Below are positions 2,520-25,708 of a DNA stretch of 30,204 bases, in pieces. This DNA is from a virus (Duplodnaviria; Heunggongvirae; Uroviricota; Caudoviricetes), in IMG/VR virus record IMGVR_UViG_3300045988_156735; one strand, given 5' to 3'. Positions within the stretch are counted from its first letter, which is position 1, and every line of letters starts with the position of its first letter. The translations under genes were made by a program, and so were the position numbers. Below the pieces are notes generated by a model that worked only from the letters and a program-made list of their open reading frames with translations, was not told where the DNA came from and did not search any database.

Positions 2520-2802
2520 CCCGTCAGCACTGATTAATGCGGTGCTTTGCACAGTAATAGTAATGGCGCTGATGCTTTATCGACGGAAAGACTCCAGGCA
2601 TCGTCCATTTGTTTCCTTTCTGGCTTATATCTACGTCATTGTATACGCCAATGTTCCCTTCCGTTATGTGTTCGGTCTTTATCAAGAATCCCACTGGCTG
2701 GTGGTTATTGGAAATCTGATTATCTGCATCGTTGTTCTGTATTTCAGGGGCAATCTGGCGCGGATAGTTGACGCATTAGGGTTTAATCATGACCAAAGAT
2801 GA
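2506..2802 (+). CDS. Second small membrane protein of the lysis cassette (holin or antiholin-like)
   Basis: 98 aa from ATG 2506 (GGAGGGGG upstream), about three hydrophobic segments; overlaps the upstream gene and the endolysin start. Confidence 0.45.
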   Translation: MVSSDPSALINAVLCTVIVMALMLYRRKDSRHRPFVSFLAYIYVIVYANVPFRYVFGLYQESHWLVVIGNLIICIVVLYFRGNLARIVDALGFNHDQR

Positions 2803-3331: not shown

Positions 3332-3606
3332 CTGGTTTGAAAGCCGTTTTGTCATTTATCGGCACCATTATATTGGTTGCATTCGGCGCATTTGGTTTTG
3401 GTCGTATGAAGGGGCGAGAAAAGGCCGAAGATGAAGCTGAAAAGCAGCGCATTAATGAGAATGCAGCCGCCGTAAAAGCCACTGCGGAGCGGCGTATAGA
3501 AGTGACAAAAGAGGTGGGGAATGTACAGCAGAGTGTTAACCATATGGCTGATGACGATGTTGATCGCGAGCTGCGGGAGTCGTGGAAGCGTCCCGGTGGT
3601 GGTTGA
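3328..3606 (+). CDS. Rz-like i-spanin
   Basis: 92 aa; ATG overlaps the endolysin stop (ATGA); N-terminal transmembrane helix (LKAVLSFIGTIILVAFGAFGF) then a charged coiled-coil-like region. Confidence 0.65.
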   Translation: MTGLKAVLSFIGTIILVAFGAFGFGRMKGREKAEDEAEKQRINENAAAVKATAERRIEVTKEVGNVQQSVNHMADDDVDRELRESWKRPGGG

Positions 3607-3730
3607 TACCGCCTGTGATTGGGTAAAGCCCATCTACCTGACTGATCACGATATCGATGTTATGGACCGCCAGACAAAGAAAGATATTCTGGCTCATAAC
3701 AGGGCATGGGAAATCAACTGCCCCAAGTAA
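3521..3730 (+). CDS. Rz1-like o-spanin lipoprotein, overlapping the 3-prime end of Rz in the +1 frame
   Basis: ORF starts inside Rz in another frame; signal peptide with lipobox LIASC (MYSRVLTIWLMTMLIASCGS); GAGGTGGGG upstream of ATG 3521. Confidence 0.6.
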   Translation: MYSRVLTIWLMTMLIASCGSRGSVPVVVDTACDWVKPIYLTDHDIDVMDRQTKKDILAHNRAWEINCPK

Positions 3731-3762
3731 TATATATTTCTATAATTATATAAATATATAGT
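3731..3762. repeat. AT-rich alternating TA block containing AATTATATAA, left boundary of the tRNA/methyltransferase cassette
   Basis: tatatatttctataattatataaatatata directly after the Rz1 stop; the same 10-mer recurs at 4872-4881. Confidence 0.5.
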
Positions 3763-3899
3763 TACAACATTCTATGCGCTTTTCTCATGAGCGCACGCAT
3801 CAACCATGTTTGTCTGATATGCCGCCGCGCCCAAAAATCCTGAATTTATTGGCTGGGATTTTCGTGCGCGGCGCCACACCAGACAAACAGATCAAATAT

Positions 3900-3975
3900 G
3901 GCCCCTTAGCTCAGTGGTTAGAGCAGGCGACTCATAATCGCACGGTCATCGGTTCAAATCCGGTAGGGGCCACCA
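3900..3975 (+). tRNA. tRNA with CAU anticodon (tRNA-Ile2-like; could be annotated tRNA-Met)
   Basis: 76-nt cloverleaf folded by hand: acceptor GGCCCCT/AGGGGCC, D-arm GCTC-AGTGGTTA-GAGC, anticodon arm GGCGA-CTCATAA-TCGCA, T-arm ATCGG-TTCAAAT-CCGGT, discriminator A and encoded CCA. The 5-prime half matches my memory of E. coli ileX. Confidence 0.85.
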
Positions 3976-4283
3976 ATTCACTCTCACACATAAAGATAAG
4001 CGCGGTGGAGTTACTTCCTTCGTGCTCATCTTTATGCGTGCCTGGTGCGCATTTCGGGCGAACGTGGGGCTAAGTTACAGGCAGGGCCTGTTATCCGCAA
4101 AGGGGTAAAAGCTGGAGCGGCACGGAACTGTAGCCGTGTTACCAAAACAGCGTTGTCGGGCGATATCCGGCACACAACAGGCAAGGGCATTAATCAGTCT
4201 GGTTAGTGCCCTTTTCGTTGTGTTTGCTGTAGAGCTGGCCAGCGTTATGACTGCCGGAGATAAGCGCCGGAGGCACAACTAAC

Positions 4284-4871
4284 ATGGAGGCAATTGCATT
4301 GTTTAATCTGATTTATGCAGATCCCCCCTGGGAATACAAAGACAAGTGTAAGGATGGGAATCGTGGAGCTGGTTTTAAGTATCCAACGATGAAAGCTGAG
4401 GAGATTGCTCGTATTCCTGTCTGGCAACTTGCTAATCCTGAATCGTGTTTGTTGGCCATGTGGTGGGTTCCGACTCAGCCAGAAGAAGCGTTGCTGGTGG
4501 TGAAAGCATGGGGGTTCAGGCTTATGACCATGAAGGGCTTCACATGGAACAAATGTGGTAGCCGACAGCCAGATAAGCTGGTGATGGGGATGGGGCATAT
4601 GACTCGTGCGAACAGTGAAGATTGCTTGTTTGCGGTAAAAGGCAAACTGCCGACCCGCCTTGATGCGGGGATCATTCAGTCGTTTACATCGCCTCGTCTG
4701 GAACATTCACGGAAGCCTGATGTGGTTCGTGACAAGCTGGTAAGACTGTTAGGTGATGTTCCTCGTATTGAGCTGTTTGCTCGCGGTGATTTACCTGATG
4801 GCTGGCATGGCTGGGGCAACCAGTGCAACGGAGGTATCCAGTTGCATGATGCTCTCTGGCAAGTGCCATAG
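4284..4871 (+). CDS. MT-A70-family N6-adenine DNA methyltransferase (orphan, no restriction partner seen)
   Basis: 195 aa with the catalytic DPPW tetrapeptide (LIYADPPWEY) near the N-terminus and layout typical of small phage MT-A70/Dam-like enzymes. Confidence 0.75.
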   Translation: MEAIALFNLIYADPPWEYKDKCKDGNRGAGFKYPTMKAEEIARIPVWQLANPESCLLAMWWVPTQPEEALLVVKAWGFRLMTMKGFTWNKCGSRQPDKLVMGMGHMTRANSEDCLFAVKGKLPTRLDAGIIQSFTSPRLEHSRKPDVVRDKLVRLLGDVPRIELFARGDLPDGWHGWGNQCNGGIQLHDALWQVP

Positions 4872-4900
4872 AATTATATAATTATAGATTTATATAAAAA
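4872..4900. repeat. AT-rich block containing AATTATATAA, right boundary of the tRNA/methyltransferase cassette
   Basis: aattatataattatagatttatataaaaa directly after the methyltransferase stop; shares a 10-mer with 3744-3753. Confidence 0.5.
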
Positions 4901-4983
4901 GTGCTTTACAGGTGGGAAAAAAATTCCTAAGGTTATACCCGAAACCGAGCGATACCCGCCCTGGTTAAACCGGAGATAACCCG

Positions 4984-5253
4984 ATGAAAGTACAAGACCG
5001 TGAAGTAGTAAAAAACCTCCTGCAATACCTGACCTCAAAAAACCTGACGGGCAGCGTTGAGTTCCGTGAAGCGTTAAAACATTTCAACGTCACTACGGTT
5101 TATCGTTGGGAAAACCAACATTCTGAAAGACCGTATGTGGTGGATGTTTTTGCGCCTGATATTGAGTGCGGTTTTGAGCGTCATTCATTCAAGAAGAAAC
5201 ATTCCGCTGATGTTTTTTGTGAGGTTGTATGTGCGGCAGGAGATGATGAGTGA
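4984..5253 (+). CDS. Hypothetical protein (89 aa), first gene of a two-gene overlapping pair
   Basis: GGAGA upstream of ATG 4984; stop overlaps the start of the next ORF (TGATG); no recognised motif. Confidence 0.5.
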   Translation: MKVQDREVVKNLLQYLTSKNLTGSVEFREALKHFNVTTVYRWENQHSERPYVVDVFAPDIECGFERHSFKKKHSADVFCEVVCAAGDDE

Positions 5254-5450
5254 TGCGTATTTCCTTCAAACGTGCGACTGAGCAGCAACGCAAAGAGTTC
5301 CTGGCTGATGATGTAGCGGCCGTTTATGACCTCATGAAAGAGGTTGTGGAATCAGGGAACTACACGGCGGCAAAGATGCTTAAACTGCAATTCTTGCTGG
5401 GCGATCTGAAATACAAATCCGAAGTTGTCGCCGGACGACGCGAGCATTAA
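5253..5450 (+). CDS. Hypothetical small protein (65 aa), second gene of the pair
   Basis: ATG 5253 overlapping the upstream stop; predicted helical, charged; followed by an intrinsic terminator. Confidence 0.45.
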   Translation: MRISFKRATEQQRKEFLADDVAAVYDLMKEVVESGNYTAAKMLKLQFLLGDLKYKSEVVAGRREH

Positions 5451-5472
5451 ACCGTAACGATAACGAACAACG

Positions 5473-5500
5473 AGCCTCGGCAATTGCCGGGGCTTTTTTA
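5473..5500 (+). terminator. Rho-independent terminator
   Basis: Near-perfect palindrome AGCCTCGGCAA/TTGCCGGGGCT centred on AATT, followed by TTTTTT. Confidence 0.6.
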
Positions 5501-5524
5501 CATCCAGACAAAGGAGAACATGGG

Positions 5525-5980
5525 ATGCCTTCGACAAGCACCAAAAAAGAAATGGCGATTAGTGATGTGCTTTACGCGCTTTCGATTATGTGTGACGGAG
5601 CAATGATGAGGATGAAAGTCCTCCATGAAGCATACGGAAAAAGTCACGATGAGGCAGCCAAAGAGTGCCTGAATGAGATTGTGGACTTCCTTGATAGTTA
5701 TCGGTCGATGATAGCTCTCGATAACCAGCCGCAAGCCGAAGAATGCCAGAAGCGCGAGTATAAAACGATATATGGGAATAAGTTCTCCTGTCTAAGCGAG
5801 TTGGCTGCAAAGGTGGCCGACATTCTGGAGAACAACGGCGGTCGAATGCGTCAGGTTAGCTGTCTGGCTGAATATGAATCTCTAATCATGTTAGTTGATT
5901 ATTTAGTTGATACCGGAGCTTTACAGCTCAACTGCGTAAGGCTATCTGGTCATCCGATAAAAATGAATGGAAGGATATAA
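5525..5980 (+). CDS. Hypothetical protein (151 aa)
   Basis: AAGGAG 8 nt upstream of ATG 5525; soluble, Cys-containing, no recognised motif. Confidence 0.5.
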   Translation: MPSTSTKKEMAISDVLYALSIMCDGAMMRMKVLHEAYGKSHDEAAKECLNEIVDFLDSYRSMIALDNQPQAEECQKREYKTIYGNKFSCLSELAAKVADILENNGGRMRQVSCLAEYESLIMLVDYLVDTGALQLNCVRLSGHPIKMNGRI

Positions 5981-7125: not shown

Positions 7126-7749
7126 ATGACAAAACATCTTAATGTGGTTTCTTTACCACTTTCTGTGTTGATTGGTTATGAAAAGAACGCTCGCACACAC
7201 TCCGTGGAGCAGGTAGATCAGATTGTTGCCAGCATACAGGAGTACGGATGGACTAATCCGATCCTGATAGACGAGAACAACGTTGTAATTGCTGGTCATG
7301 GTCGAATTGCTGCGGCCACTCAGTTGGGGATGGATGATGTTCCCTGCATTGTTCTGGAAGGGCTAACGGAGAATCAGAAGAAGGCATATCGTCTGGCCGA
7401 CAACCGTATTCCGCTGAATGCTGGTTGGGATGAAGAGCTGTTAAGCGCGGAGCTTGCAGATCTTGCGGCCGATGATTTTGCTCTGGACTCAATTGGTTTT
7501 ACTCAGCGCGAACTGGATAACTTATTGAGTGCGGCGGTCTACGATGACACAGAGGGTATGGATATCCCATTTGAGAAGGATGAGGCCAAATCAGGCGTAA
7601 AAGTTCAGTACCTGTCATTTGGAGGTCATAAAATCCCGGCAACGGATGAGGAAGCGGATCGTTTTGACTGCGCGGTGTCTCGTTATGTTGATGATAATGG
7701 CAGCTATATCGGATTTGTATCCGCATTGCTGGCTGGGGAGGTGTGCTGA
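7126..7749 (+). CDS. ParB-like N-terminal domain protein (paralog 1)
   Basis: 207 aa; ParB/Srx-type block ...NPILIDENNVVIAGHGRIAAATQLG...; about 60 percent identical by eye to the ORF at 10416-11006 over the N-terminal 100 aa. Confidence 0.65.
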   Translation: MTKHLNVVSLPLSVLIGYEKNARTHSVEQVDQIVASIQEYGWTNPILIDENNVVIAGHGRIAAATQLGMDDVPCIVLEGLTENQKKAYRLADNRIPLNAGWDEELLSAELADLAADDFALDSIGFTQRELDNLLSAAVYDDTEGMDIPFEKDEAKSGVKVQYLSFGGHKIPATDEEADRFDCAVSRYVDDNGSYIGFVSALLAGEVC

Positions 7750-9122
7750 TGCTTCACCTCAATTACGACATAACGCACCTACGCGGCGCGGAATATAACC
7801 CGCGTTTTATCGGTGAGGATGATCTTGCGAGGCTGGCGGAAAGCGTCAGGGAGCTGGGGCTTGTGAAGCCATTGATAGTGCGCGGCGATTTGCTGGTGGC
7901 GGGACACCAAAGGACGAAGGCGCTACGTAAGTTGGGAATAACGCGTGCTGCGGTGTATGTGTTGCCCTGTGAAACGACGGTATACGACGAAGTACGGTTT
8001 AACCAACTGCATAACGGAACGGATTTTGATAGCGGAGATGAGCGTTGCAGGGTGTCCGGTCTGGAAGATAAGCATGGTTTTGTTCAGGTATCGGCAAGCC
8101 AGATCTCAGGCAATATGCGCGCGAAAATGGCATATGTTCGAAAGAACATAGCGGAACTGGTTATCAAGTATGGTCCGTGGGGTGGTTGTGTTGCTACTCA
8201 GTCTGGTGAGGTTATTCACTGTGCTCAGTATGCATTAGCAGCGAAAATGACGCGCACACCGCTAACGGTGTTTGTGATCCCTGATGTTGAGAAGGAAAAA
8301 TACCAAAGTTATCTGAATAAAACTTATGGTGTATTTGAGTATTCTCATCTGGAGAAAACAACATACATCCAGACGTATGCGCAGCTTATGCGGTTGCGTA
8401 ATGGTGGCAGCCTGAAATCAAATCTGTATGAGTCGTTGATCCTCCCGATCATTGCCAAGACGCCAAGAGGAATTGATTTTGGTTCGGGGCAGGGAGACTA
8501 CGCGCGAATGCTCAGGGCAAAGGGATATAACCTGCATGATCTCGAGCTTTTCCGCCGTAAGGGCGCTGGAAACACTCTGGATAGGGCCGCAACAAACCGG
8601 ATGATTGATACGCTGGTGGACGACTTAAAAACGCGAGGGCGTTATGACTACGTGATTTGCGATAGCGTTTTGAACTCGGTCGATAGTGTCGAGGCTGAAT
8701 GGTCCGTTCTGACGGTTCTAAAAGGCCTGTGTAAAGCTGGTGGGTCAATATTCTTTTCTGGTCGTAGCCGTGGAGAGCTGGAAACAGTCCTGAAGCAAAC
8801 ACAAGCGGCGAGTTCCAAAAGCCGGCTTTATTTTATTGATCATAACGGTTTTACCGCGTTGTACCGGAAGGGGCACTGGTTTTACCAGAAGTTTCACTCT
8901 GATGATGAAGTGAAGCAGTTGTGTCGTGTACATGGTTTCAGGATTAAGCGGTCAATATTCAACTGTAAGAGCTGGTATTTGCACGTCATTAACGATGATT
9001 CCCTTAGTTGGGCGAGTCTGGAGAAAGCTGTTCGTTTTGAGTTTGAGTTGCCGTTGCCTGGTGGTTCAACAATCGGACGATCTGATGATGTGCTGGCGGC
9101 TTTCCGGCCGTTGATTAAGTAG
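7749..9122 (+). CDS. Fusion protein: ParB-like N-terminal domain plus C-terminal class-I SAM-methyltransferase-like domain
   Basis: ATG 7749 overlaps the upstream stop (ATGA) with GGGGAGG 9 nt upstream; N-terminus LIVRGDLLVAGHQRTKALRKLG (ParB-like); C-terminal half has IDFGSGQGDY (glycine-rich SAM motif I-like) and YDYVICDSVLNSV; no DPPY/NPPY-type motif seen. Confidence 0.55.
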   Translation: MLHLNYDITHLRGAEYNPRFIGEDDLARLAESVRELGLVKPLIVRGDLLVAGHQRTKALRKLGITRAAVYVLPCETTVYDEVRFNQLHNGTDFDSGDERCRVSGLEDKHGFVQVSASQISGNMRAKMAYVRKNIAELVIKYGPWGGCVATQSGEVIHCAQYALAAKMTRTPLTVFVIPDVEKEKYQSYLNKTYGVFEYSHLEKTTYIQTYAQLMRLRNGGSLKSNLYESLILPIIAKTPRGIDFGSGQGDYARMLRAKGYNLHDLELFRRKGAGNTLDRAATNRMIDTLVDDLKTRGRYDYVICDSVLNSVDSVEAEWSVLTVLKGLCKAGGSIFFSGRSRGELETVLKQTQAASSKSRLYFIDHNGFTALYRKGHWFYQKFHSDDEVKQLCRVHGFRIKRSIFNCKSWYLHVINDDSLSWASLEKAVRFEFELPLPGGSTIGRSDDVLAAFRPLIK

Positions 9123-10048: not shown

Positions 10049-10419
10049 GGTTAAAAGTTGCGGTAAAAGAAATTTACTCATCTCATTGAAAAATATCGGG
10101 AAAACGTGATTTTTTGCTGTATTTGTGCTGGTAAAAAGAAAGTAGAAAATTTTCTTTTAGATCATCAAGATACGCGCAGATCTTTAACCAATGTGATGTT
10201 GTTCTGATAAAAATCGTTATAAATCATGCAAATACATCCAATCTTTTAACCAAAACACCATCTCAAGATCCTTTTTACTTATAAAAACTTAATAAAATCA
10301 GATGATTATGCTGGTTTGTGTGATTTTTTATGAGTAAAAAGATCGTCATTTTTCTCTTTTAGTATCAATAAGTTAAACAGTTTTCTTTAACCTGTTGTGT
10401 TATGGCGGTTAAAAAATGG
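10049..10419. promoter_or_regulatory. AT-rich spacer with iterated TCTTTAACC-type motifs and GATC sites (candidate packaging site, protein-binding array or promoter)
   Basis: Direct repeats TCTTTAACCAA (10181), ATCTTTTAACCAAAA (10241), TTCTTTAACC (10383); inverted GGTTAA copies at 10049 and 10407; GATC at 10160, 10179, 10267, 10341; no credible ORF. Confidence 0.4.
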
Positions 10420-11006
10420 CTCTAAAAATCGAATATTTACCAGTCGGTAAGCTGCTCAGATACGCCAAAAATTCACGGACTCATTCAGATGAGCAGGTTG
10501 AACAGTTGGTGAACAGTATCCGTGAGTTCGGTTTCACTAATCCTGTGCTGATCGATGAAAAGAATGAACTGATTGCGGGGCATGGTCGGCTTGCAGCAGC
10601 CGAAATTCTGGAAATGGATAAAGTTCCGGCGATTCGGTTGAGTAACCTTTCTGAAAAACAGAAGAAGGCTTACAGGATTGCAGATAACAAGCTGGCCTTA
10701 AATGCTGGCTGGGATATGCAGCTTCTGGCCGAAGAAGTCAAAGAGTTAATGGATGATGATTTTGATATTGATCTGCTTGGGTTTAATGATGCAGAGCTTG
10801 ACGAAATGTTAAGCGATGAACAGCCGCAGGAAGAAGACGATAATTCTTCCCCTGTTGTTCAAATTAAGTACCTGTCTATTGATAAAGAACGTATTCCCGC
10901 GACGGATATGGAAATTGCATTGTTGCTGGATGTTTATCGTCAGTACCACGACGCGCATGAAACGCATGAGGGATTTGTTCAGTATCTTGCTAATGGTTGC
11001 AAGTAA
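10416..11006 (+). CDS. ParB-like N-terminal domain protein (paralog 2), immediately upstream of the terminase genes
   Basis: 196 aa; ...NPVLIDEKNELIAGHGRLAAAEILE...; stop overlaps the small terminase start (TAATG). Confidence 0.65.
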   Translation: MALKIEYLPVGKLLRYAKNSRTHSDEQVEQLVNSIREFGFTNPVLIDEKNELIAGHGRLAAAEILEMDKVPAIRLSNLSEKQKKAYRIADNKLALNAGWDMQLLAEEVKELMDDDFDIDLLGFNDAELDEMLSDEQPQEEDDNSSPVVQIKYLSIDKERIPATDMEIALLLDVYRQYHDAHETHEGFVQYLANGCK

Positions 11007-11557
11007 TGGCCATCGTCAGTAAGTCAGAGTTTGCTCGCCGGAAAGGTATTTCTCCGGCAATGGTTACGAAGCTCTGTCGTTCCGGTCGCATTCCAGTGCT
11101 GAAAAGCGGCAAGCTGGATTTTGATAAAGCCAGTGCGGCTTATGAAGCGAGCCGACAGGTTGGTCGTGAGGTATCTGCTGAAAATGGAAAAAGAGGGCAT
11201 GGGATATCTTCGGAACAACCAGAGTTACCCGCTGATGATGCCGGATTAGCTGGTGGTACTTCCGGTGTTGCGGTGCAATTCAACAAGGCTAAGACCGCAG
11301 AAAAAATTTATCAGGCAAAGCTGAAACGCCTTGAATTTGAAGAAAAGGAAGGCTCTCTCATCGCTAAAGATGCGGTCAGGGATGATGCATTTCTGGCAGC
11401 TAATGAATTGCGTAGCCGCTTATTTAGTATTGCTCCAAGAGCAGCTCCCCGTTGTGAAGGCAAAACAGCCAGGGAGATCGAACGCATTATTGAAGACGAG
11501 ATTAATTTTGCGCTTCAGGCGCTCCAGGAATCCCGATTTATTAAGCAGGAAGAATAA
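11006..11557 (+). CDS. Terminase small subunit
   Basis: 183 aa from ATG 11006; N-terminal HTH-like segment (SKSEFARRKGISPAMVTKL); ends 5 nt before the large terminase. Confidence 0.65.
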   Translation: MAIVSKSEFARRKGISPAMVTKLCRSGRIPVLKSGKLDFDKASAAYEASRQVGREVSAENGKRGHGISSEQPELPADDAGLAGGTSGVAVQFNKAKTAEKIYQAKLKRLEFEEKEGSLIAKDAVRDDAFLAANELRSRLFSIAPRAAPRCEGKTAREIERIIEDEINFALQALQESRFIKQEE

Positions 11558-11562
11558 ACCTC

Positions 11563-13419
11563 ATGGGCGAAACAGTATGGAGCACCGCTTTTTTCCGTGC
11601 GCTTCGCCCTAAATCACGGCTAACTGTTTCCGAATGGGCTGATAAGTATCGTCATGTAGCGCCGGGAACGTCTCCAGAGCCAGGGCCGTGGCGTACAAGC
11701 CGAGTGCCATATTTGCGTGAACCAATGGATGTTATTGGTGACGCTGATACAGAAACAGTAGTGATGCAATGTAGCTCGCAAATTGGTAAATCCGAATTAC
11801 AGCTAAATGTTATGGGTTACTTTGCAGATCAGGAGCCATCTCCTCAGTTGATGATTTATCCAACGGTAGAGGCGGCTGAGGCTTTTTCAAAAGAGCGTAT
11901 TGATCCGACGTTCAAATATTCCCCTGGTTTGAAACACAAGCTGCATGAAGGGAAAGAGGGGCGCGGTGCAGCCAAAAAGTCCAGCACGACTATACGTATG
12001 AAGCATTACGCTGGTGGATATATAGCACTTGTTGGTGCTAATTCCCCAGCAGGTCTTGCATCCAGGCCAATTCGAATACTGTTAGCTGATGAGATTGATC
12101 GTTACGGTGTGACGCAGGAGGGCGACCCACTAAAACTAGGTATTCAGCGTACTACCAACTTTCATAATCGTAAGAAAGTTTTTGTTTCTACTCCTGTTTT
12201 GGAGGAAACGAGCAAAATCCACAAGTGGTTTAAGCTCTCCGATCAGCGTTACTACCATGTTCCTTGCCCATGTTGTGGCACCATGCAGGTGATGAAATGG
12301 TCGCAAGTCAGATGGGATAAGAGCGATTCAGGTGAGGCGTTACCGGAAACGGCCAGATATGAGTGCTGTGAGTGCGGCGGGATTATGCGCGGATCTGGTA
12401 AACCAGACGTTGATTGGTTGGCGAAGGGGGTATGGATAGCTGAACATACTGGAGTTAAAGGTATTGTTGGTTTTCATATTAACAGTCTTTACTCCCCGTG
12501 GGTTGCATTGTCAGAGCTGGTTGAAGAATTTACGGAAGCAACCAGAAACCGCGATAAAAATGGATTAATGGAGTTTATTAACCTTAAGCTGGGTGAGCCA
12601 TGGAAAGAGGATGCTAAAGACGATATCGATCCTGAATACTTGTTGCAACGCAGAATAAGGTTTGAAGAGTTTTTACCAGATGATGTTTTATTGTTAAGTG
12701 CTGGTGTTGACGTACAGGACACGTATTTAGTTTGTGAATTGGTCGGTTGGGGAAAAGGTAAGGAGTCATGGGGGATAGAATATAAAATATTCCCAGGTGA
12801 TCCCGCACAAGATGTTGTCTGGAAACAACTTGATGAATACTTACTCCGTAGCTGGTCATTCCGTGACGGTCGAAAATTACAGATTTCTTCCGTTTGTATT
12901 GACTCTGGTGGGCATTTTACGACAGAGGTATATCGCTTTACTAAGCCGAGAGAATCAAGGCGAATATACTCTATCAGGGGGCGTGGTGGGGTAGGTTTAC
13001 CATTTATAGGAAAGCCAAGTAATAATAACCGTGTGGGTGCTATGTTGTTTAATTTGGGGGTTGATGATGGTAAAGGGACCATCATGGCAAGAATTAAACT
13101 ACATGATCCTGGTCCTGGTTATATGCATTTCCCATTAGATTCTGACAGAGGATATGATACCGAATACTTTAAAGGATTATTATCAGAGAAGAAAATATTT
13201 GAATATAAAAATGGGCAGACAAAAGAAAAGTGGGTGAAAGTCTACGAGCGTAACGAGCCTCTTGATTGCCGTAACTATGCAACTGCCGCGATGGAAATTC
13301 TGAACCCTAATTTTAACTGGCTTGCCGAACAGGAAATGCGAGGTAATGTGTATGTGCAGAACTCGTCAGGTATACGTAGAAGACGCCGTAGAGTTATAAG
13401 TAAAGGCGTAACCATATAG
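11563..13419 (+). CDS. Terminase large subunit, lambda GpA family
   Basis: 618 aa; N-terminal region with VMQCSSQIGKSE P-loop-like block and overall length and layout matching GpA-type terminases as I recall them. Confidence 0.8.
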   Translation: MGETVWSTAFFRALRPKSRLTVSEWADKYRHVAPGTSPEPGPWRTSRVPYLREPMDVIGDADTETVVMQCSSQIGKSELQLNVMGYFADQEPSPQLMIYPTVEAAEAFSKERIDPTFKYSPGLKHKLHEGKEGRGAAKKSSTTIRMKHYAGGYIALVGANSPAGLASRPIRILLADEIDRYGVTQEGDPLKLGIQRTTNFHNRKKVFVSTPVLEETSKIHKWFKLSDQRYYHVPCPCCGTMQVMKWSQVRWDKSDSGEALPETARYECCECGGIMRGSGKPDVDWLAKGVWIAEHTGVKGIVGFHINSLYSPWVALSELVEEFTEATRNRDKNGLMEFINLKLGEPWKEDAKDDIDPEYLLQRRIRFEEFLPDDVLLLSAGVDVQDTYLVCELVGWGKGKESWGIEYKIFPGDPAQDVVWKQLDEYLLRSWSFRDGRKLQISSVCIDSGGHFTTEVYRFTKPRESRRIYSIRGRGGVGLPFIGKPSNNNRVGAMLFNLGVDDGKGTIMARIKLHDPGPGYMHFPLDSDRGYDTEYFKGLLSEKKIFEYKNGQTKEKWVKVYERNEPLDCRNYATAAMEILNPNFNWLAEQEMRGNVYVQNSSGIRRRRRRVISKGVTI

Positions 13420-13430
13420 AGGAAATATAA

Positions 13431-13670
13431 ATGAACAATGAAGCATTTTCTCTGACTGAAGCCAGAGAGATGTTATCTGTCTGGCGGGAAGCATATCGCG
13501 CTATTGCTATTGGCGGTCAGTCATATAAATTTGGTACGCGGCAGTTAACTCGTGCGGATTTATCAGAAGTCAGAAAAGAGATGGATTACTGGCGTAATGA
13601 AGTAGAAAGATTATCAGCAGGTATACGCCGAGGCCCACGAATTAAACGAGTGGTGATAAGAGATTTATGA
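13431..13670 (+). CDS. Head-tail joining protein, lambda gpW-like
   Basis: 79 aa between terminase and portal; AGAGGA RBS; basic C-terminus (RRGPRIKRV). Confidence 0.6.
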   Translation: MNNEAFSLTEAREMLSVWREAYRAIAIGGQSYKFGTRQLTRADLSEVRKEMDYWRNEVERLSAGIRRGPRIKRVVIRDL

Positions 13671-15241
13671 ATATTCTTGATCGAGTTATTGCGCCGTTTT
13701 CACCTCAGAGGGCATTAAATCGAGCTTTGGCAAGAAAACGGTTAGAAGCACTTGAAGGTATTAATAACCTTGGATATTCACGTCATGGTGCAAGCACTCA
13801 TAAAAAATCATTAAGGGGTTGGTTTAGTAAAGCTGGTTCTCCTGATGATGATATTGTTAAAAATATAGATAAATTGCGTGAGCGTTCTCGTGATCTCTTC
13901 ATGGGAAACCCGCTATCGGTTGGCGCAATAAAAACTATCAGGACAAACGTTGTTGGTTCCGGTTTAAAACTAAATGCGAACATTGATGCCGATTTCTTGG
14001 GGATGACGCAGGAAGAAGCGCGAGCATGGGAAAAGCATGTTGAGCGTGAGTTTAGATTATGGGCTGATTCTCCAAATTGTGATGCATCAAGAATGTGTAC
14101 TTTTGGACAATTGCAATCATTGGTCCAAATATCTGCGTTAACATCTGGCGATATATTTGCTGCGCTACCAGTTATTAAGCGTAAGGGTGTTATATATGAT
14201 TTGTGCGTCTATTTAATTGAAGGTGATCGTGTTTGCAATCCAGAGGATCGTTTTATACCAAATCTTTACGGTGGCGTAGAGGTTGGTGAATTTAGCGAGC
14301 CTGTGGCGTACTGGGTTGCAAAACATCACCCAGCCGGGACTTCTGGTTTTGTAACCCGCAAGTGGGAACGTATTCCCGCATATGGGAGTAAAACAGGAAG
14401 AAGAAATATTCTGCATGTCATGCAGGATTTTGAAAGGCCTGGGCAACGTCGTGGCGTTCCTGTCCTTGCTCCTGTTATTGAAGCATTGAAGCAGTTAGGA
14501 CGATACACCGATGCTGAATTGGTTGCTGCGGTTGTGTCAGGGATGTTTACTGTCTTTATTAAAACAGACGCTCCTGATGGACCAGTCGGTGAATCGGGTA
14601 TCCCTCAGTACGAGCAGATCGATAACCATGATGATAACACCCAAGAAATGGGGAATGGCTCCATAGTAAGTTTGGGTGAAGGTGAGTCGATAGATACAGC
14701 AAATCCCGGGCGACCAAATACGGCATTTGATGGTTTTGTTGTCGCCATATGCCGTCAAATTGGGGCTGCTTTAGAACTCCCTTACGAACTCTTGGTAAAG
14801 CATTTTACAGCAAGTTATAGCGCAAGCAGGGCCGCATTACTTGAAGCCTGGAAAATGTTCCGTATGCGACGTGACTGGATGGTTCAGTCATTTTGCCAAC
14901 CGATCTATGAGGAATGGTTGGCCGAAGCCGTTGCTAAAGGTCGTGTTATTGCCCCTGGTTTTTTTTATGGGCCTGAATATCGCGCTGCATGGAGTGGCGC
15001 TCAATGGTATGGCCCATCACAAGGCCAATTAGATCCCCTTAAAGAAGTCAAAGCTGCAAAACTGCGTGTTGAGGAAACATTCTCTACCCGTGAAAAGGAA
15101 GCGGCTGAAATGTCAGGTCTTAACTGGGAAGAAACCGCACAAATTTGTGGCAGAGAAGAGAATGCTCGCCGTGAGTTGGGGCTGATTACGCCTCCTGTTT
15201 CTGAGGTAAATGAACAAAATATGGAGACAGATGATGCCTAA
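13667..15241 (+). CDS. Portal protein (lambda gpB-like)
   Basis: 524 aa; ATG overlaps the gpW-like stop; canonical position between W and the prohead protease. Confidence 0.8.
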   Translation: MNILDRVIAPFSPQRALNRALARKRLEALEGINNLGYSRHGASTHKKSLRGWFSKAGSPDDDIVKNIDKLRERSRDLFMGNPLSVGAIKTIRTNVVGSGLKLNANIDADFLGMTQEEARAWEKHVEREFRLWADSPNCDASRMCTFGQLQSLVQISALTSGDIFAALPVIKRKGVIYDLCVYLIEGDRVCNPEDRFIPNLYGGVEVGEFSEPVAYWVAKHHPAGTSGFVTRKWERIPAYGSKTGRRNILHVMQDFERPGQRRGVPVLAPVIEALKQLGRYTDAELVAAVVSGMFTVFIKTDAPDGPVGESGIPQYEQIDNHDDNTQEMGNGSIVSLGEGESIDTANPGRPNTAFDGFVVAICRQIGAALELPYELLVKHFTASYSASRAALLEAWKMFRMRRDWMVQSFCQPIYEEWLAEAVAKGRVIAPGFFYGPEYRAAWSGAQWYGPSQGQLDPLKEVKAAKLRVEETFSTREKEAAEMSGLNWEETAQICGREENARRELGLITPPVSEVNEQNMETDDA

Positions 15242-16298
15242 TTGGTGGGAAATAAAAAATAGCACGGGTGAAGATGACTCTCCGGCTGAACTTTTAATCT
15301 ACGGATATATTGGCGAATTTGATGAGGTTTCTTCTTCTGACATAGTTAATAAATTAAAGGATATATCATCAAATGCTATCAACGTAAAAATTAATAGTTA
15401 TGGTGGTTCTGTTTTTACTGCTCAAGCTATTCTTTCTTCATTAAAACGTCATAAGGCTAATATTACTGTTTATATTGATGGTATTGCTGCATCGGCTGCA
15501 ACCATTATTGCAATGGCAGGTGATAAAGTTGTTATCCCATCTAATGCTATGATGATGATCCATAATCCGTGGACATTTGCTGCTGGTGATGCGGATGAAC
15601 TACGTGATATTGCTGAGATGATGGATAAGATACGAGATAGTATTTTATCTGCATATAAGGAGAAAACAGGGCTTTCTGAGGATAAATTAATTGAACTAAT
15701 GGATCAGGAAACATGGCTAAATGCAGAAGAGGCTGTAGAGCTTGGATTTGCTGACGAAGTTGAAAAACCAATGCGCTTATCCGCTTCTATAAAGGAAGGG
15801 ATGCTTTCGCTCAATGGAATAACTTTTGAAGCATCAAGGTTTTCAAAATTACCTGATTCGCTCGCAAAGTTGCCACAAAATAAAAATGAATTATCTACTG
15901 AATTAAATGAACAAAATGAGGACGATGTTGTGACTCTTGATGAATTAAAAAATAAACATCCAGAATTATACAATCAGGTTTTTAATGCTGGTAAAGACGA
16001 GGGCGTTAAATCAGAACGCGAGCGCATTGAAACAATCGAGAATAGCGTGATTCCAGGTCATGACGACCTGGTTAAGAATGCAAAATTCAAAACGGGAGTT
16101 TCTGCGGCTGAACTTGCTTTGGAAATTATGAATGCAGAGCGAGCGCGTAACAAAAACTTTCTTAATCAACGGCAAGAAGACGCAAATGAGGTGAATGATT
16201 CAGTTGATGTTAATCAACCAGAAAACAACGGAGATAAACAAGCTGAAGTAGTAAAAAATGTTATTGGGTCAGTATTTAAAAACCGCGATAAAAATTAA
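15210..16298 (+). CDS. ClpP-like (S14) prohead protease fused to a scaffold-like C-terminal domain
   Basis: 362 aa; N-terminal half ...YGGSVFTAQAIL...IDGIAASAATIIAMAGDKVVIPSNAMMMIHNPW... is ClpP-like; C-terminal 150 aa is charged and helical. Start may instead be ATG 15231 or 15234. Confidence 0.75.
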   Translation: MNKIWRQMMPNWWEIKNSTGEDDSPAELLIYGYIGEFDEVSSSDIVNKLKDISSNAINVKINSYGGSVFTAQAILSSLKRHKANITVYIDGIAASAATIIAMAGDKVVIPSNAMMMIHNPWTFAAGDADELRDIAEMMDKIRDSILSAYKEKTGLSEDKLIELMDQETWLNAEEAVELGFADEVEKPMRLSASIKEGMLSLNGITFEASRFSKLPDSLAKLPQNKNELSTELNEQNEDDVVTLDELKNKHPELYNQVFNAGKDEGVKSERERIETIENSVIPGHDDLVKNAKFKTGVSAAELALEIMNAERARNKNFLNQRQEDANEVNDSVDVNQPENNGDKQAEVVKNVIGSVFKNRDKN

Positions 16299-16307
16299 GG
16301 TGAGTTT

Positions 16308-16691
16308 ATGCGAGAGTCTTTTTCATTTGAACCAGATAATCTGATTATTTCTGGTGGTATGCCAGCAATTACAACAAGTATTAAACTTGCCAGCGGTAAA
16401 GTAAATCGAGGTGAGTTGCTTGCTTTTGTCAGTATTGATCAGACAACAAATGTTGTCACTGTAGCACCAATAAATCTCTCTGGTGAGGGGGTGGCAAAAG
16501 AACCGTATTGTATCGCTCAACACAGTATTGATGCGACTGATTCAGCGCAAGTTGGAACAGCATGGCTGACCGGAATGTTCAATGCACATGCGGTTATCCT
16601 TCCTGAATCAGCAAAGATTGCCGATGTATATCTGGCTTGCCGGAAGGTTGGGATATTCCTTAACACCGCACAACAAAATCCATCTGCATAA
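16308..16691 (+). CDS. Head decoration protein (lambda gpD-like)
   Basis: 127 aa, immediately upstream of the major capsid gene; AAGGTGAG RBS. Confidence 0.6.
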   Translation: MRESFSFEPDNLIISGGMPAITTSIKLASGKVNRGELLAFVSIDQTTNVVTVAPINLSGEGVAKEPYCIAQHSIDATDSAQVGTAWLTGMFNAHAVILPESAKIADVYLACRKVGIFLNTAQQNPSA

Positions 16692-16711
16692 TATAAAGAG
16701 GTCGTATTTTT

Positions 16712-17755
16712 ATGCCGAATATTGATATTTTTGAACGACGTACAATGCTTGAGCCTGTTATTCAGAATTTCAAGGCTCGTCGTTTTCTTCTTCGTACCTT
16801 TTTTCCTGGTGTTCAGACCTTTAATACAAAGAAAGTTGATCTGGATTTTGTTCGCGGTGGCCGTACTATGGCTCCGTTTGTTGGTAAAGGTTTTGGCTCA
16901 AAAACCGTTGAGCGACGCGGCTTTGTAACGAGAACTCTGGAGCCACCACTTGTTGCACCTGATTTGGTAACAACAGCAGAGCTGCTTTTAAACAGGCTTC
17001 CGGGTGAGAATATTTACAACGCAAAATCGCCAGCAGAACGAGCCGCCGAGCAATTAGGTAAAGATTTGCTTGAGCTTGATGAAATGGTTAACCGCCGTGA
17101 AGAATGGATGTGTGCACAAGTCTTGTTTACGGGGCAGGTTGATATTGTTGGTGAAGGTGTGGATGACACAGTTTATTTTTGGCCTGAAGAGGAAGGAGAT
17201 AAACCATATCTTGAACTGACAGGTGATGATTTATGGAGTGCTGCAAAATCAGATCCGTTGGTCAATGTTCGCAACTGGAAACGTCGGGTATCACTAACTT
17301 CAGGTTTTACACCTCGTGTTGCCGTAATGGGCGCAAAAGTTGTTGATGCTTTCGTTAAAAATGAAGCAGTAACTAAATATCTTGATAATCGCCGAAAAGA
17401 GCTTGGGTATATTGAGCCTAAGGAGTTAGAAGAAGGCGTAACTCATTATGGCAATCTTGAAGGTGTCGATTTTTATGGTTACGACGAACTTATTCGCAAT
17501 GATAAAACAGGAAAACCAGAACCATTAGTACCGGAAGATAAGATCCTCTTTGGCTCTCCTGGTCGAGGAACGATGCTGTATGGTGCTGTAGAGCTTGTAG
17601 ATGACGCCGAAAAGACTCTAACGATTGTTGAGTCACCACGAGTTCCAGACACCTGGGTAACTCGTAAGCCGGCTGGCCGTTATGTTGCCATGAAGTCATC
17701 TCCACTGCCTAATCCTGGTGTGGCTGATGCCTATCTGGTGGCTAAGGTGGTTTAA
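16712..17755 (+). CDS. Major capsid protein, lambda gpE family
   Basis: 347 aa; C-terminal VPDTWVTRKPAGRYVAMKSSPL resembles the lambda gpE C-terminus as I recall it; length and position fit. Confidence 0.8.
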   Translation: MPNIDIFERRTMLEPVIQNFKARRFLLRTFFPGVQTFNTKKVDLDFVRGGRTMAPFVGKGFGSKTVERRGFVTRTLEPPLVAPDLVTTAELLLNRLPGENIYNAKSPAERAAEQLGKDLLELDEMVNRREEWMCAQVLFTGQVDIVGEGVDDTVYFWPEEEGDKPYLELTGDDLWSAAKSDPLVNVRNWKRRVSLTSGFTPRVAVMGAKVVDAFVKNEAVTKYLDNRRKELGYIEPKELEEGVTHYGNLEGVDFYGYDELIRNDKTGKPEPLVPEDKILFGSPGRGTMLYGAVELVDDAEKTLTIVESPRVPDTWVTRKPAGRYVAMKSSPLPNPGVADAYLVAKVV

Positions 17756-18148
17756 ATGGCCAGACTGATTAAAAACATTGATACGATAAGCCACGGCTCG
17801 CTAAAAGCGGGCCGTTTGCTTAATGGGCTAATGGATAACTCCAGAATTGCCGAACTGATTGCGTCAGGACATGCTATTGCCACCGAAGAGGATGGTGATT
17901 TGGCATCGGCCGGGGGCTATGATGCTGCTAAGTTAGCTTTTGAGCATGGATACGCATCTGCTGTTAATGATGCTGTGGACGCGGGGTTGATTACGCGAAC
18001 GGAGGCGGGTAGCTGTGTATTCGAGGTTGAGTTTGAGGATGATGGCGGCAATGAGGAAACGGTTGCTGATGATTCATCTGAATCTGTAGCTACTTCTGAT
18101 ACCAGTAATGCGAAAAAATCAACGCAAAAAAAAGGTAATAAGAAGTAA
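17756..18148 (+). CDS. Hypothetical head-associated protein with acidic C-terminal tail
   Basis: 130 aa; ATG overlaps the capsid stop region; acidic stretch EVEFEDDGGNEETVADDSSE. Confidence 0.45.
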   Translation: MARLIKNIDTISHGSLKAGRLLNGLMDNSRIAELIASGHAIATEEDGDLASAGGYDAAKLAFEHGYASAVNDAVDAGLITRTEAGSCVFEVEFEDDGGNEETVADDSSESVATSDTSNAKKSTQKKGNKK

Positions 18149-18492
18149 TGAACTCCTTCAAAGAGGTTATAGCGCAAGATATTTCTGCAATATTCCTCAA
18201 TGAAAAAGAGTTTGCCGATACATATAACATAGACGGCAAGGATATCCTTGCCGTTATTGATACAGACCTTATTCATGAGCGGAATAAACGCTCATATGCT
18301 GAGTTTGCAGAGGGAATAAATCAGGGGCAAATAATATTATTTGTTTCAAGAAAAGATTTTCCTGTTCTCCCTGTCAAAGACCAGTCAATGAAAATCAACG
18401 GTAAAAATTATATTGTTGATGAAGTATCAGATAATGTTGGTGTATTGGAAATAACTCTCACTGTTAATACTAACAGAGGAATGCCGATTTGA
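18148..18492 (+). CDS. Putative head-tail connector or head completion protein
   Basis: 114 aa in the head-to-tail transition block; assignment by position only. Confidence 0.4.
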   Translation: MNSFKEVIAQDISAIFLNEKEFADTYNIDGKDILAVIDTDLIHERNKRSYAEFAEGINQGQIILFVSRKDFPVLPVKDQSMKINGKNYIVDEVSDNVGVLEITLTVNTNRGMPI

Positions 18493-18974
18493 TTAATCTT
18501 TTGATAGATGCAATAAAAAATCGGTTGGAACATGAGGTTTTCCATGATTTATTAGTGCAGGGGCCTCCTTATGATGAAACAGACAGCGATATTAAATTGT
18601 TTGTTCCAACAATATTTAAAGGGTACTTGCCTCCTAAATCACAACCATCTCCAGATAAACCGCCAGAATTTCCTCATGTGATTATCAGGCCCACGGAAGG
18701 AGGAATGCAGCCTGAAACGGATGAAGTTAAGGTTAAGTTTCTTCTAGGTGGTTTTTGTGAGGACCATACTGGATATGAATGGGTAATGGCTCTTCTTGAA
18801 AGGATGATGTTTCATTTTCAGGAGAAGCCTTTACTTGAAGAGAAATTTCTCTTTCAGGGTGATATCAGATGGCGAATGTTTGATGATCAACCATATCCAT
18901 ATTGGATAACGGAAGCAACTGGAACGTGGCTAGTATTAAAGCCTCAGAATATTCAGTCTCAGGAGTTTATCTAA
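18489..18974 (+). CDS. Putative tail completion or neck protein (TTG start)
   Basis: 161 aa; TTG start overlapping the previous stop; assignment by position only. Confidence 0.4.
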   Translation: MINLLIDAIKNRLEHEVFHDLLVQGPPYDETDSDIKLFVPTIFKGYLPPKSQPSPDKPPEFPHVIIRPTEGGMQPETDEVKVKFLLGGFCEDHTGYEWVMALLERMMFHFQEKPLLEEKFLFQGDIRWRMFDDQPYPYWITEATGTWLVLKPQNIQSQEFI

Positions 18975-19265
18975 ATGGCTAATAAGAAAAGTAGTAAAGA
19001 AGATATAGAAAAGAAGGAAGATGTTGCTCAAACATTTGTATATATAGGACCAACAATCCCTCAACTCTCAATTTTGAAGCATAAACTATTTAAGAATGGT
19101 TTATCTCCAGAGTGTAAAAAATTAATATCACATATTCCTGGTGCAAAGTGTTTGTTTGTGGCAACCAGTGATTTTGCAGATGCAGAAAAAAGACTTTCTG
19201 ATAAAACCAGTGTCGAGTATGTAATGTACTCTAGAGTTTCTTCTTCTATCATGGAGATTAAATAA
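18975..19265 (+). CDS. Hypothetical virion-region protein (96 aa)
   Basis: ORF immediately after the previous stop; its stop overlaps the sheath start (TAATG). Confidence 0.4.
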   Translation: MANKKSSKEDIEKKEDVAQTFVYIGPTIPQLSILKHKLFKNGLSPECKKLISHIPGAKCLFVATSDFADAEKRLSDKTSVEYVMYSRVSSSIMEIK

Positions 19266-20728: not shown

Positions 20729-20744
20729 ATAATAGGAGGTTGCT

Positions 20745-21266: not shown

Positions 21267-21275
21267 GGTGACAAA

Positions 21276-21557
21276 ATGGAAACCGTTAAATTAAGTAAAG
21301 AATATCGTTTTGAAGACTTTGAGCCGGTGACTGAACTCAACCTTGATTTAGACAACCTAAAAGGCAGTGATATTTTAGAGGTATCGGACTTACTGCAATC
21401 TCAAGGGCATGTTTCAGTTCAAACATCACTTGATAATAAAGTCCATGCAGCCTTGGCTGCTCGCTGTATTGGCCGTCCAATAGAGTATCTGAATGGATTG
21501 CCAGCGAAAGACTTTGTTAAAGTTTGTCAAAAGGTACAGAATTTTTTGCTCTCGTAG
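21276..21557 (+). CDS. Tail assembly chaperone (P2 gpE / lambda gpG analog)
   Basis: 93 aa between tube and tape measure; slippery heptamer near its 3-prime end. Confidence 0.65.
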   Translation: METVKLSKEYRFEDFEPVTELNLDLDNLKGSDILEVSDLLQSQGHVSVQTSLDNKVHAALAARCIGRPIEYLNGLPAKDFVKVCQKVQNFLLS

Positions 21558-21706: not shown

Positions 21707-21711
21707 TACTA

Positions 21712-25706: not shown

Positions 25707-25708
25707 TT

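Follow-up and report, generated by a model that had tools for sequence, protein, structure and literature searches.

Positions 3731 to 4900 of a 30,204-nt stretch of tailed-phage DNA (Caudoviricetes; IMG/VR record IMGVR_UViG_3300045988_156735), referred to as the window, contain a gene for a CAU tRNA and a gene for an MT-A70 family adenine methyltransferase, and this block is bracketed by AT-rich sequence on both sides. The original prediction, made from the sequence alone, pointed to a 10-mer shared by the two flanks and considered them either as remnants of the recombination junctions by which the block was inserted as a cassette or as promoter- or terminator-like elements. The question raised by this locus is what the flanks are. 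According to the comparisons made here, they belong to a family of arrays of 8-bp units, which are probably dispersed centromere and operator iterons of a small ParG/omega-like partition protein and not recombination junctions.

The part of the window from 2100 to 7100 matches the Escherichia fergusonii plasmid pRHB23-C02_4 (NZ_CP057564.1; 48,686 bp, circular, complete replicon) with a reported identity of 100.0%, a single base in a promoter spacer near 4923 being the difference between both. Window positions are obtained by subtracting 9491 from the record positions of this plasmid. Encoded on pRHB23-C02_4 are RepA, a RelE/ParE toxin-antitoxin pair, a small ParA, a CI-like repressor of the helix-turn-helix (HTH)/S24 type and early genes, furthermore a lysis cassette (holin, GH108, spanin), a terminase, a head module and a contractile tail. 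The element is a phage-plasmid of 48.7 kb.

Arrays of 8-bp units at the flanks of the block

The 10-mer AATTATATAA is present on the plus strand at both sites for which it was described (3744-3753 and 4872-4881), and its reverse complement is found at 4874-4883. No further exact copy was detected in the 30.2-kb window, for which 0.14 copies are expected; three copies were reached in none of 100 shuffles. The proximity of each tract to a stop codon, also described before, was borne out. The left tract begins on the final base of the stop codon of the Rz1 o-spanin gene (TAA 3728-3730), the right one overlaps the stop codon of the methyltransferase gene (TAG 4869-4871). As evidence by itself the shared direct 10-mer was rejected, because it is not significant once two TA-rich tracts of 30 nt are given (P = 0.08 for composition shuffles, 0.33 under a first-order Markov model). 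When the tracts are compared for exact matches, the longest one has 15 nt and is in inverted orientation (TCTATAATTATATAA at 3739-3753 versus the reverse complement of 4875-4889, P = 0.001-0.017). The observation is confirmed, and its significance is that of an array family, not that of the 10-mer.

Both tracts are composed of tandem 8-bp units in register with the consensus TTATATAA. The left one, array E (3730-3761), consists of the four units ATATATAT TTCTATAA TTATATAA ATATATAG and is extended to 3777 by two degenerate units (TTACAACA TTCTATGC), which include a -35-like GTTACA; a convincing -10 is not found in its vicinity. The right one, array F (4866-4897), contains the units CCATAGAA TTATATAA TTATAGAT TTATATAA. 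Each array includes one of the two direct 10-mers. A scan of the complete replicon revealed eight arrays of three to six contiguous units each, while none was found in shuffled sequence. All eight are intergenic in pRHB23-C02_4, and their record positions are as follows:

2787-2818: spacer between parA and the following gene for an 82-aa protein
3495-3534: 3' of the parA -10, immediately before the parA ribosome-binding site
3576-3607: 5' of the parA -35, behind the terminator of the preceding gene
7330-7361: before the DUF3560 gene
8547-8578: behind the terminator of the DUF3560 gene, before the next ribosome-binding site
13221-13252: array E, left flank of the tRNA-methyltransferase block
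14357-14388: array F, right flank of the tRNA-methyltransferase block
47099-47122: before a gene for a 126-aa protein close to the toxin-antitoxin pair

The exact 10-mer, considered earlier as a possible mark of the ends of a cassette, is found at five intergenic loci of the complete replicon, all of them among these eight. A matrix derived from 34 units reads W-T-M-T-A-K-A-W, with T4 present in 33 and A5 in all 34 of them. The unit is palindromic, so that units of mixed orientation occur within the arrays. Array E is unchanged in four Escherichia-type plasmids despite variable flanking bases and nearly identical in three Salmonella plasmids, in which array F is kept as well; the plasmids of Salmonella Weltevreden and Concord harbor eight arrays at orthologous positions. 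Between the genera (E. coli vs Salmonella), the arrays are more conserved than the coding DNA beside them. From their sequence, these arrays at the starts of transcription units look like protein-binding iterons.

The partition operon and its small protein

Three of the eight arrays are located at the par operon, one 5' of the -35, one between the -10 and the parA ribosome-binding site and one in the gap that separates parA from the small gene. ParA (217 aa) is a Walker-type protein matching the CbiA/ParA models. It is of type Ib and, given this length, has no N-terminal HTH extension. The next gene after parA (record positions 2526-2774, minus strand) encodes the 82-aa protein, of the WP_000730008.1 type, in which a Pro/Lys-rich tail is followed by QMAFNVDPEFKREYKTFASSMDMSLKEVLTKSFELLKAQ. 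The proteins of E. fergusonii and Salmonella are 91% identical, and both are accompanied by the same array unit. In the AlphaFold2 (AF2) monomer model, residues 1 to 45 are disordered and helices are formed by residues 47 to 59 and 62 to 81, which fits a ribbon-helix-helix protein whose strand is predicted to form only in the dimer. The C-terminal strand-helix-helix pattern of the protein appears similar to ParG of TP228 or omega of pSM19035. With hhalign, residues 40 to 72 were aligned in register with the ribbon-helix-helix of ParG (1P94) at a non-significant E value of 0.058. A homologue search in a set of 5.8 billion proteins yielded only relatives with at least 79% identity; none were found in GTDB species genomes, and those in IMG/VR belong to the same family. 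For the CI-like repressor, palindromic operator candidates of another kind are present at its own divergent promoter region.

Repeat units of related partition loci

Diverse lineages were found via homologues of ParA. Homologous pairs of ParA and small protein are encoded in five further backbones, making six lineages in total (identities to the proteins of the element):

E. coli conjugative plasmid NZ_CP037908.1: ParA 45%, small protein 39%, unit TTATATAA-like
Serratia phage-plasmid: ParA 53%, small protein 40%, unit TTAAATAA
Vibrio phage-plasmid: ParA 38%, unit TTCTTTAA
Pseudomonas phage-plasmid: ParA 38.5%, unit TTCGCTAA
Halomonas plasmid: ParA 39%, unit TAACGCTA

Every pair examined shows the layout array-promoter-array-parA-array-small gene. 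Escherichia/Salmonella and the conjugative plasmid have the TTATATAA type in common; the other lineages add four units that are clearly distinct from it. A cross-scan of six genomes with five units gave a near-perfectly diagonal result, the sole off-diagonal signal being one TTAAATAA-type match in Vibrio. The units of Pseudomonas and Halomonas contain G and C; AT-richness is hence not a conserved property of the arrays, and a function solely as generic UP elements or H-NS sites is less likely for this reason.

Arrays outside the par locus were detected in every full genome examined and never in shuffled sequence. Five arrays were counted in the conjugative plasmid, two of them within the type IV secretion operon, at least six in the Serratia, nine in the Vibrio and six in the Pseudomonas phage-plasmid. 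The latter two (NZ_CP049915.1, L069, and P. aeruginosa plasmid NZ_CP097559.1, L070) are contractile-tailed phage-plasmids of about 41-43 kb, in which several arrays lie in gaps between tail genes. Judged by these genomes, dispersal of the iterons looks like a general trait of this phage-plasmid class with its module of ParA and small protein.

Conservation and exchange of the block in relatives

The block and its left neighbor comprise the following features in addition to the two arrays (window positions):

3521-3730 (+): gene for an Rz1-type o-spanin, last of the lysis cassette (PHROG 1275, Rz-like spanin, 2.9e-33)
3807-3889 (+): long hairpin with 34-nt arms between array E and the tRNA gene (inverted repeat I1)
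3900-3975 (+): CAU tRNA gene
3985-4040 (+): hairpin with 25-nt arms immediately 3' of the tRNA gene (inverted repeat I4), formed in the minimum free energy fold
4046-4298 (+): structured non-coding leader between tRNA and methyltransferase genes
4172-4223, core 4183-4213, followed by TTTTCGTT: terminator-like stem-loop in the leader, from a terminator scan
4299-4871 (+): gene for an MT-A70 family N6-adenine methyltransferase (190 aa)

Diverged relatives were found in three Salmonella plasmids, whose endolysin and spanin genes are different and whose methyltransferase block shows approximately 75-79% nucleotide identity. They keep array E, the hairpin, the leader, the methyltransferase gene and array F; only the segment from about 3896 to 4045, comprising the tRNA and the following hairpin, is swapped for 370-660 nt of other DNA (L005 3305-3965 in the Salmonella Weltevreden plasmid LN890526.1; also L007 and L014). 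This replacement is strongly structured (z = -6.3), lacks a tRNA and has no open reading frame (ORF) longer than 66 aa. The comparison with relatives proposed in the original prediction, meant to show whether junctions coincide with the repeats, places the breakpoints inside the block, at about 3896 and 4046. The tRNA segment may thus mark a slot in which genes for non-coding RNAs are exchanged.

In PLSDB, the left module was found in 61 plasmids and the methyltransferase leader in every one of these; the block is for this reason core to the family and not variable. A scan of IMG/VR with a 16-mer of the left module returned the Escherichia and Salmonella types only, plus chance matches. No integrase, transposase or recombinase gene was found beside the block, which is surrounded by lysis genes and by small genes without an assigned function; the sole recombinase-family gene of the replicon is located about 28 kb away by a putatively invertible tail-fibre segment. 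The Serratia phage-plasmid has the backbone and the lysis cassette in common with the element, with a different structural module and a non-contractile tail. In this relative the spanin gene leads directly to the terminase genes, neither the block nor arrays are present there and all downstream genes differ. A gain or a loss of the block must thus have taken place at some depth in the family. As every transcription unit appears to come with an array of its own, the arrays are not to be regarded as junction scars.

A putative promoter-leader module to the right of the block

Array F overlaps a module which extends to the start codon of the next gene. The following features were assigned in the window, the promoter elements on the basis of cross-lineage conservation only:

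4874-4987 (+): promoter-leader module of 114 nt (repeat family D2)
4905-4910: -35 hexamer TTTACA
4928-4933: -10 hexamer TAAGGT
4972-4975: Shine-Dalgarno sequence GGAG
4984: start codon ATG
4984-5253 and 5250-5450 (+): two small genes (PHROG 6143 and 6621, function unknown)
5472-5495: intrinsic terminator closing the two small genes, from a terminator scan

The array is followed after 7 nt by TTTACA, which is separated from TAAGGT by a 17-bp spacer containing an inverted repeat; then come a hairpin in the 5' untranslated region (5'UTR), GGAG and ATG. Three copies with 92-99% identity are present in the replicon, each ending exactly on the ATG of a different gene (window 4874-4987; pRHB23-C02_4 7338-7451 and 47099-47212). 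The module is also found in the deletion derivative pCREC-544_3 and in the conjugative plasmid. The three copies are identical within each genome, yet differ at shared positions among the E. coli, Salmonella and Serratia lineages. This pattern of sameness within and difference between genomes indicates concerted evolution, presumably by gene conversion or through a co-evolving trans-acting factor.

TTTACA and TAAGGT at 17-bp spacing match the consensus at 8 of 12 positions and were not called by a sigma-70 consensus scan, which gave no promoter in the whole region from 3500 to 5600, including the part downstream of array E. T1, A2 and T6 of the -10 and the geometry of -35, 17 bp and -10 are kept in the other lineages (TATGGT in Salmonella, TATTCT/TAATAT in Serratia, TATTAT in Vibrio). 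The inverted repeat of the spacer, (T)AGGA-N7-TCCT(A), is the same in the Vibrio parA promoter and may be a second operator. At 4917-4925 of the spacer the window reads GGGAAAAAAATTCC, while NZ_CP057564.1 and both paralogous copies read GGGAAAAAATTTCC; this one-base difference lies inside the inverted repeat. In the 5'UTR hairpin, the loop ATACC is kept and the stem is covarying (AACC..GGTT vs GGCC..GGCC). The two small genes at 4984-5450 are predicted to be driven by this module.

Interpretation of the arrays

As dispersed centromere and operator iterons, the arrays would be coated cooperatively by dimers of the small protein, one dimer binding per 8-bp unit. Those at the par operon would serve as centromere and in autoregulation, the five others as extra centromere sites and/or as operators or roadblocks setting the expression of accessory units in the plasmid state. 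Array E would head a non-coding unit (hairpin, tRNA-Ile2 and structured RNA with terminator) which leads into the methyltransferase gene, array F would be the 5' portion of the sigma-70-type promoter-leader module that serves the two small genes behind it, and the tRNA-Ile2 would decode AUA, a codon heavily used by the late genes of the element. Alternatively, since a convincing -10 is missing at array E, tRNA and methyltransferase may depend on transcripts that continue from the lysis operon, and array E would then be a roadblock or a centromere.

Several points weigh against the assignment of the arrays to the 82-aa protein. This protein gave no sequence match in Pfam, NCBIfam or PDB, neither as single sequence nor as profile, and Foldseek retrieved nothing meaningful with the two-helix AF2 monomer model; the ribbon-helix-helix assignment is without statistical support. 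The small protein of the conjugative plasmid is just 39% identical and its unit is still near TTATATAA, so that divergence of unit and protein is not strictly proportional. The link between unit and protein is based on six lineages, and the par genes are inherited together with further genes of the backbone. No sigma-70 promoter is recognisable downstream of array E, which makes read-through from the lysis operon possible there. AT-rich arrays would also attract H-NS or Fis.

Among the other explanations, an inserted mobile cassette with the AT-rich sequence as duplicated or recombined target site at its ends is very improbable. Similar sequences do bracket the block, each beside a stop codon, the Serratia relative lacks the whole block together with both arrays, pointing to gain or loss as one or two units, and the repeated arrays and 114-nt modules could be substrates of homologous recombination. 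The repeat is, however, not specific to the two ends but present in eight arrays per genome, of which the par operon has three, and the exchange in Salmonella is internal (about 3896-4045), with both arrays unmoved. Moreover, all 61 PLSDB relatives have the leader and the IMG/VR matches belong to the Escherichia and Salmonella types, the best match between the flanks is inverted and not direct, an adjacent integrase or transposase gene is missing, and the arrays are better conserved than the neighboring coding DNA, which is unexpected for scars. The junction-scar reading, one of the two offered for the flanks in the original prediction, is largely refuted by the occurrence of the motif family at eight intergenic sites and by exchange boundaries that lie elsewhere in the relatives. 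The other one, promoter- or terminator-like elements, is broadly right in that array F is the upstream part of a conserved putative promoter (-35, 17 bp, -10) and 5'UTR module ending at the next ATG.

A generic AT-rich promoter architecture, in which UP elements, curved DNA or H-NS/Fis sites for host factors were copied with a duplicated promoter and no dedicated plasmid protein is involved, is quite unlikely. It would agree with the near-identity of the three module copies, consistent with plain duplication, with the fact that array F and its two paralogues end 7 nt 5' of the -35 hexamer, the location of an UP element, and with the general preference of H-NS for DNA rich in TA steps. The strict 8-bp register with near-invariant T4 and A5, in contrast, is not the helical phasing of curvature, and arrays are also located 3' of the parA -10, between parA and the small gene, immediately before ribosome-binding sites and within tail or secretion operons, where UP elements would make no sense. 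In addition, equivalent arrays contain G and C in Pseudomonas (TTCGCTAA) and Halomonas (TAACGCTA), and each lineage has essentially its own unit only. It is unlikely, too, that another plasmid-encoded regulator binds the arrays, for example a small HTH protein or the 124-aa protein encoded upstream of parA. The weak ribbon-helix-helix assignment of the 82-aa protein leaves room for such a factor, several small regulators are co-inherited with the backbone, and the second conserved inverted repeat, (T)AGGA-N7-TCCT(A), in the promoter spacer suggests that at least one more regulator probably acts there. On the other hand, the genes always present by the par-locus arrays in six lineages are parA and the following small gene, whereas the upstream neighbors vary; the CI-like repressor has separate palindromic operator candidates; and binding of one dimer per tandem unit of 7-8 bp is the known mode of ribbon-helix-helix partition proteins.

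tRNA, structured RNA and methyltransferase

The CAU tRNA gene at 3900-3975 (+) is real. It was identified by ARAGORN and matched the Rfam tRNA family RF00005 with 67 bits (gathering score 29). Over the full 76 nt it is 89.5% identical to chromosomal genes annotated as tRNA-Ile in 5,424 of 5,426 E. coli genomes; the plasmid copy is likewise annotated as tRNA-Ile by PGAP. Positions 1 to 42 (5' acceptor strand, D arm and anticodon arm) are identical to the ileX sequence; the 3' acceptor strand matches it as well, with mismatches confined to the variable loop and the T arm. By these sequence matches the gene is assigned to tRNA-Ile2, an ileX-like AUA decoder whose C34 would be modified to lysidine by TilS, and not to tRNA-Met. 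A tRNA with 95-96% identity to it is present in P1-like plasmids of about 90-97 kb. A 34-nt piece of the Salmonella replacement DNA recurs 3' of this tRNA in a P1-like plasmid (L009 2893-2926).

AUA is used in the element at 15.2 per 1000 codons overall and at 19.3 per 1000 in the structural genes (window about 10400-30204), compared to about 4 per 1000 in E. coli according to standard codon tables. Its share of the Ile codons is 25% in the whole element, 30% in the structural genes and 12-14% in the early and lysis genes. Given this AUA-richness, especially of the structural genes, a supply of tRNA-Ile2 for late translation would be a sensible function. The AUA-rich late region also fits the carriage of tRNA-Ile2 immediately upstream of the late genes.

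The hairpin at 3807-3889 folds with -40.3 kcal/mol (z = -6.35) and is kept in Salmonella with three pairs altered on both sides. It could be an RNase III-type processing site or an RNA stability element, both being candidates from sequence and fold. The S. salamae copy has a perfect 24-bp stem, and no U-tract follows the hairpin in the window. Downstream, the region 3976-4300 folds with -135.6 kcal/mol (z = -5.2). From about 4075, the leader is approximately 93-95% conserved versus Salmonella where alignable, compared to approximately 75-79% for the block including the coding sequence, and four pairs of the leader terminator stem are altered on both sides. In pESBL3215, 4053-4155 is deleted. 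A small leader ORF (4045-4206) was rejected as coding, as the seven substitutions relative to Salmonella are not spaced in a 3-nt pattern and the reading frame is interrupted by an indel. In Rfam searches of the window and the Salmonella locus with gathering and E-value thresholds, the tRNA alone passed; microRNA-type matches on the hairpin are spurious, and a rydB-like match at 4226-4281 (27 bits, gathering score 50) was treated as chance.

The MT-A70 gene, ending at 4871, was confirmed by Pfam (PF05063, 2.2e-23; 83.5 bits at a cut-off of 23.9, 172 of 172 profile positions) and by PHROG 359 (DNA methyltransferase, 5e-102). The nearest solved structures are catalytic domains of the MT-a70 family/METTL3, and the catalytic motif DPPW (ADPPW) is located near the N-terminus of the translation. 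Its description as an orphan methyltransferase holds by these matches and by the lack of an adjacent restriction gene; the neighbors are the tRNA and small proteins of unknown function (PHROG 6143, 6621 and 14707). PGAP places the start at ATG 4284. A conserved GGAGG is followed after 8 nt by TTG 4299, and due to a 4-nt indel in Salmonella between 4284 and 4299 only TTG 4299 remains in frame there. For both reasons the start is probably TTG 4299, 15 nt 3' of the annotated ATG. In the S. salamae plasmid CP053324.1 (L014, about 1500-1515), five instead of six C in GATCCCCCCTGG cause a frameshift within the DPPW motif; the gene is naturally knocked out in this plasmid, or else the homopolymer was misread in sequencing.

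Distribution and further features of the element

At a coverage of at least 80%, the locus is present in 67 of 5,426 complete E. coli genomes, and three Yersinia phage records contain it as well. The family members in PLSDB include the 48.5-kb plasmid of the E. coli reference strain ATCC 25922, which carries NZ_CP009073.1. The phage-plasmid family is common in clinical and animal E. coli. No published name for the family of pRHB23-C02_4 was found in the literature. The group name 'pSLy3' was rejected for the element, as pSLy3 belongs to the SSU5 supergroup. Plasmid pCREC-544_3 (L003/L011), considered as an unrelated plasmid with the right module, was recognized as a deletion derivative of the same family.

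Adjoining genes at 7126-9122 of the window encode a protein with a ParB/Srx N-terminal domain (207 aa) and a 459-aa ParB-N-domain protein, and an additional ParB/Srx gene is located immediately before the terminase genes. The Salmonella orthologue of the 459-aa protein is annotated as 'methyltransferase domain-containing', so that the element probably encodes a second, ParB-fused DNA methyltransferase. Three tandem 132-nt repeats (repeat family D3) are found in the large tail-fibre gene (window 29411-29806) and three 45-nt repeats at 120-nt spacing (repeat family D4) in the tape-measure gene (window 23769-24053). Inverted repeats of 55-80 nt flank oppositely oriented tail-fibre and assembly genes (pRHB23-C02_4 39645-42730). 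This segment adjoins the recombinase-family gene, extends into the window at 30154-30204 with the rest beyond it, and looks by its arrangement like an invertible host-range segment of the Gin/Cin type.

Comparison with known systems and significance

The omega protein of pSM19035 binds arrays of heptads which overlap three promoters and are also the parS sites (PMC3074150). As tentatively predicted for the 82-aa protein here, omega is a small protein with an unstructured N-terminal tail and a ribbon-helix-helix, encoded beside a small Walker-type ParA. Its iterons are short, contiguous, direct or inverted, overlap several promoters and act as operators and centromeres (PMC3074150); the counterpart in pRHB23-C02_4 are three to six contiguous units of mixed orientation at the parA promoter and at other promoters. 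Different are the 8-bp unit TTATATAA instead of the 7-bp WATCACW, the Gram-negative host, the phage-plasmid replicon and the presence of arrays within late operons of related elements, and no sequence similarity to omega is detectable. ParG of TP228 coats arrays of 4-bp boxes with regular 4-bp AT-rich spacers at parH and OF, which are located 5' of the ATPase gene and serve as centromere and operator (PMC3130281). ParF/ParG is likewise a type Ib system of Enterobacteria, and the 82-aa protein aligns in register with ParG by hhalign, although this similarity is non-significant (E = 0.058). In contrast to TP228, the unit is a TA-rich palindrome without an ACTC box, and five further arrays lie elsewhere in pRHB23-C02_4, whereas those of TP228 are confined to the par locus.

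In the linear phage-plasmid N15, with SopAB, the sites of the partition protein are also multiple and separate (IR1-4) and do not form one cluster (PMC7205306). The system differs in being of type Ia, with a large HTH protein of the ParB family (SopB) and single palindromes of the 16-bp type instead of tandem 8-bp iterons. Ravin, Rech and Lane (J Bacteriol 2008) reportedly described that the N15 sites lie in phage regions and that the Sop system affects late gene expression. KorB of the IncP plasmid RK2 is a partition protein and at the same time a global transcriptional regulator acting via about a dozen dispersed OB operators. Unlike the 82-aa protein, it is an HTH protein of the ParB family, and its sites are single 13-bp palindromes on a conjugative plasmid, not a phage-plasmid. 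With regard to the contents of the block, tRNA-Ile(CAU) genes are likewise carried by P1-like plasmids, and orphan N6-adenine methyltransferases are common in phages (PHROG 359). Here, by contrast, an iteron array precedes a conserved and structured non-coding unit that contains the tRNA, and in Salmonella the tRNA is exchanged for other structured non-coding DNA.

A mobile cassette would have been a routine finding; the outcome is instead a testable map of a partition-linked iteron system. For annotation this means that the AT-rich tracts described here would be regulatory elements, that the tRNA is Ile2 and not Met, and that the methyltransferase probably starts 15 nt further downstream. Omega is known to couple partition and expression in Gram-positive plasmids, as is KorB in IncP plasmids; no description of such a coupling was found in the literature for phage-plasmids whose partition system is of this type. 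If the small protein binds all eight arrays, segregation and the expression of accessory functions (a rare-codon tRNA, a DNA methyltransferase and several unknowns) would be coupled via one protein. A wider proposal, offered tentatively, concerns the whole phage-plasmid class, which would be widespread and use a type Ib ParA with a small ParG/omega-like protein, and which is found in Escherichia/Salmonella, Serratia, Vibrio and Pseudomonas with more than one kind of tailed-phage module. In this class, iterons may have spread from the par locus to three to six more sites per genome, including the heads of accessory units, here tRNA-Ile2/MT-A70 and the three promoter modules, and gaps in late operons, with co-evolution of iteron and protein and with modules kept identical by gene conversion. 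The partition protein might then act as a genome-wide organizer, which provides multiple centromeres and silences or insulates accessory and lytic transcription in the plasmid state.

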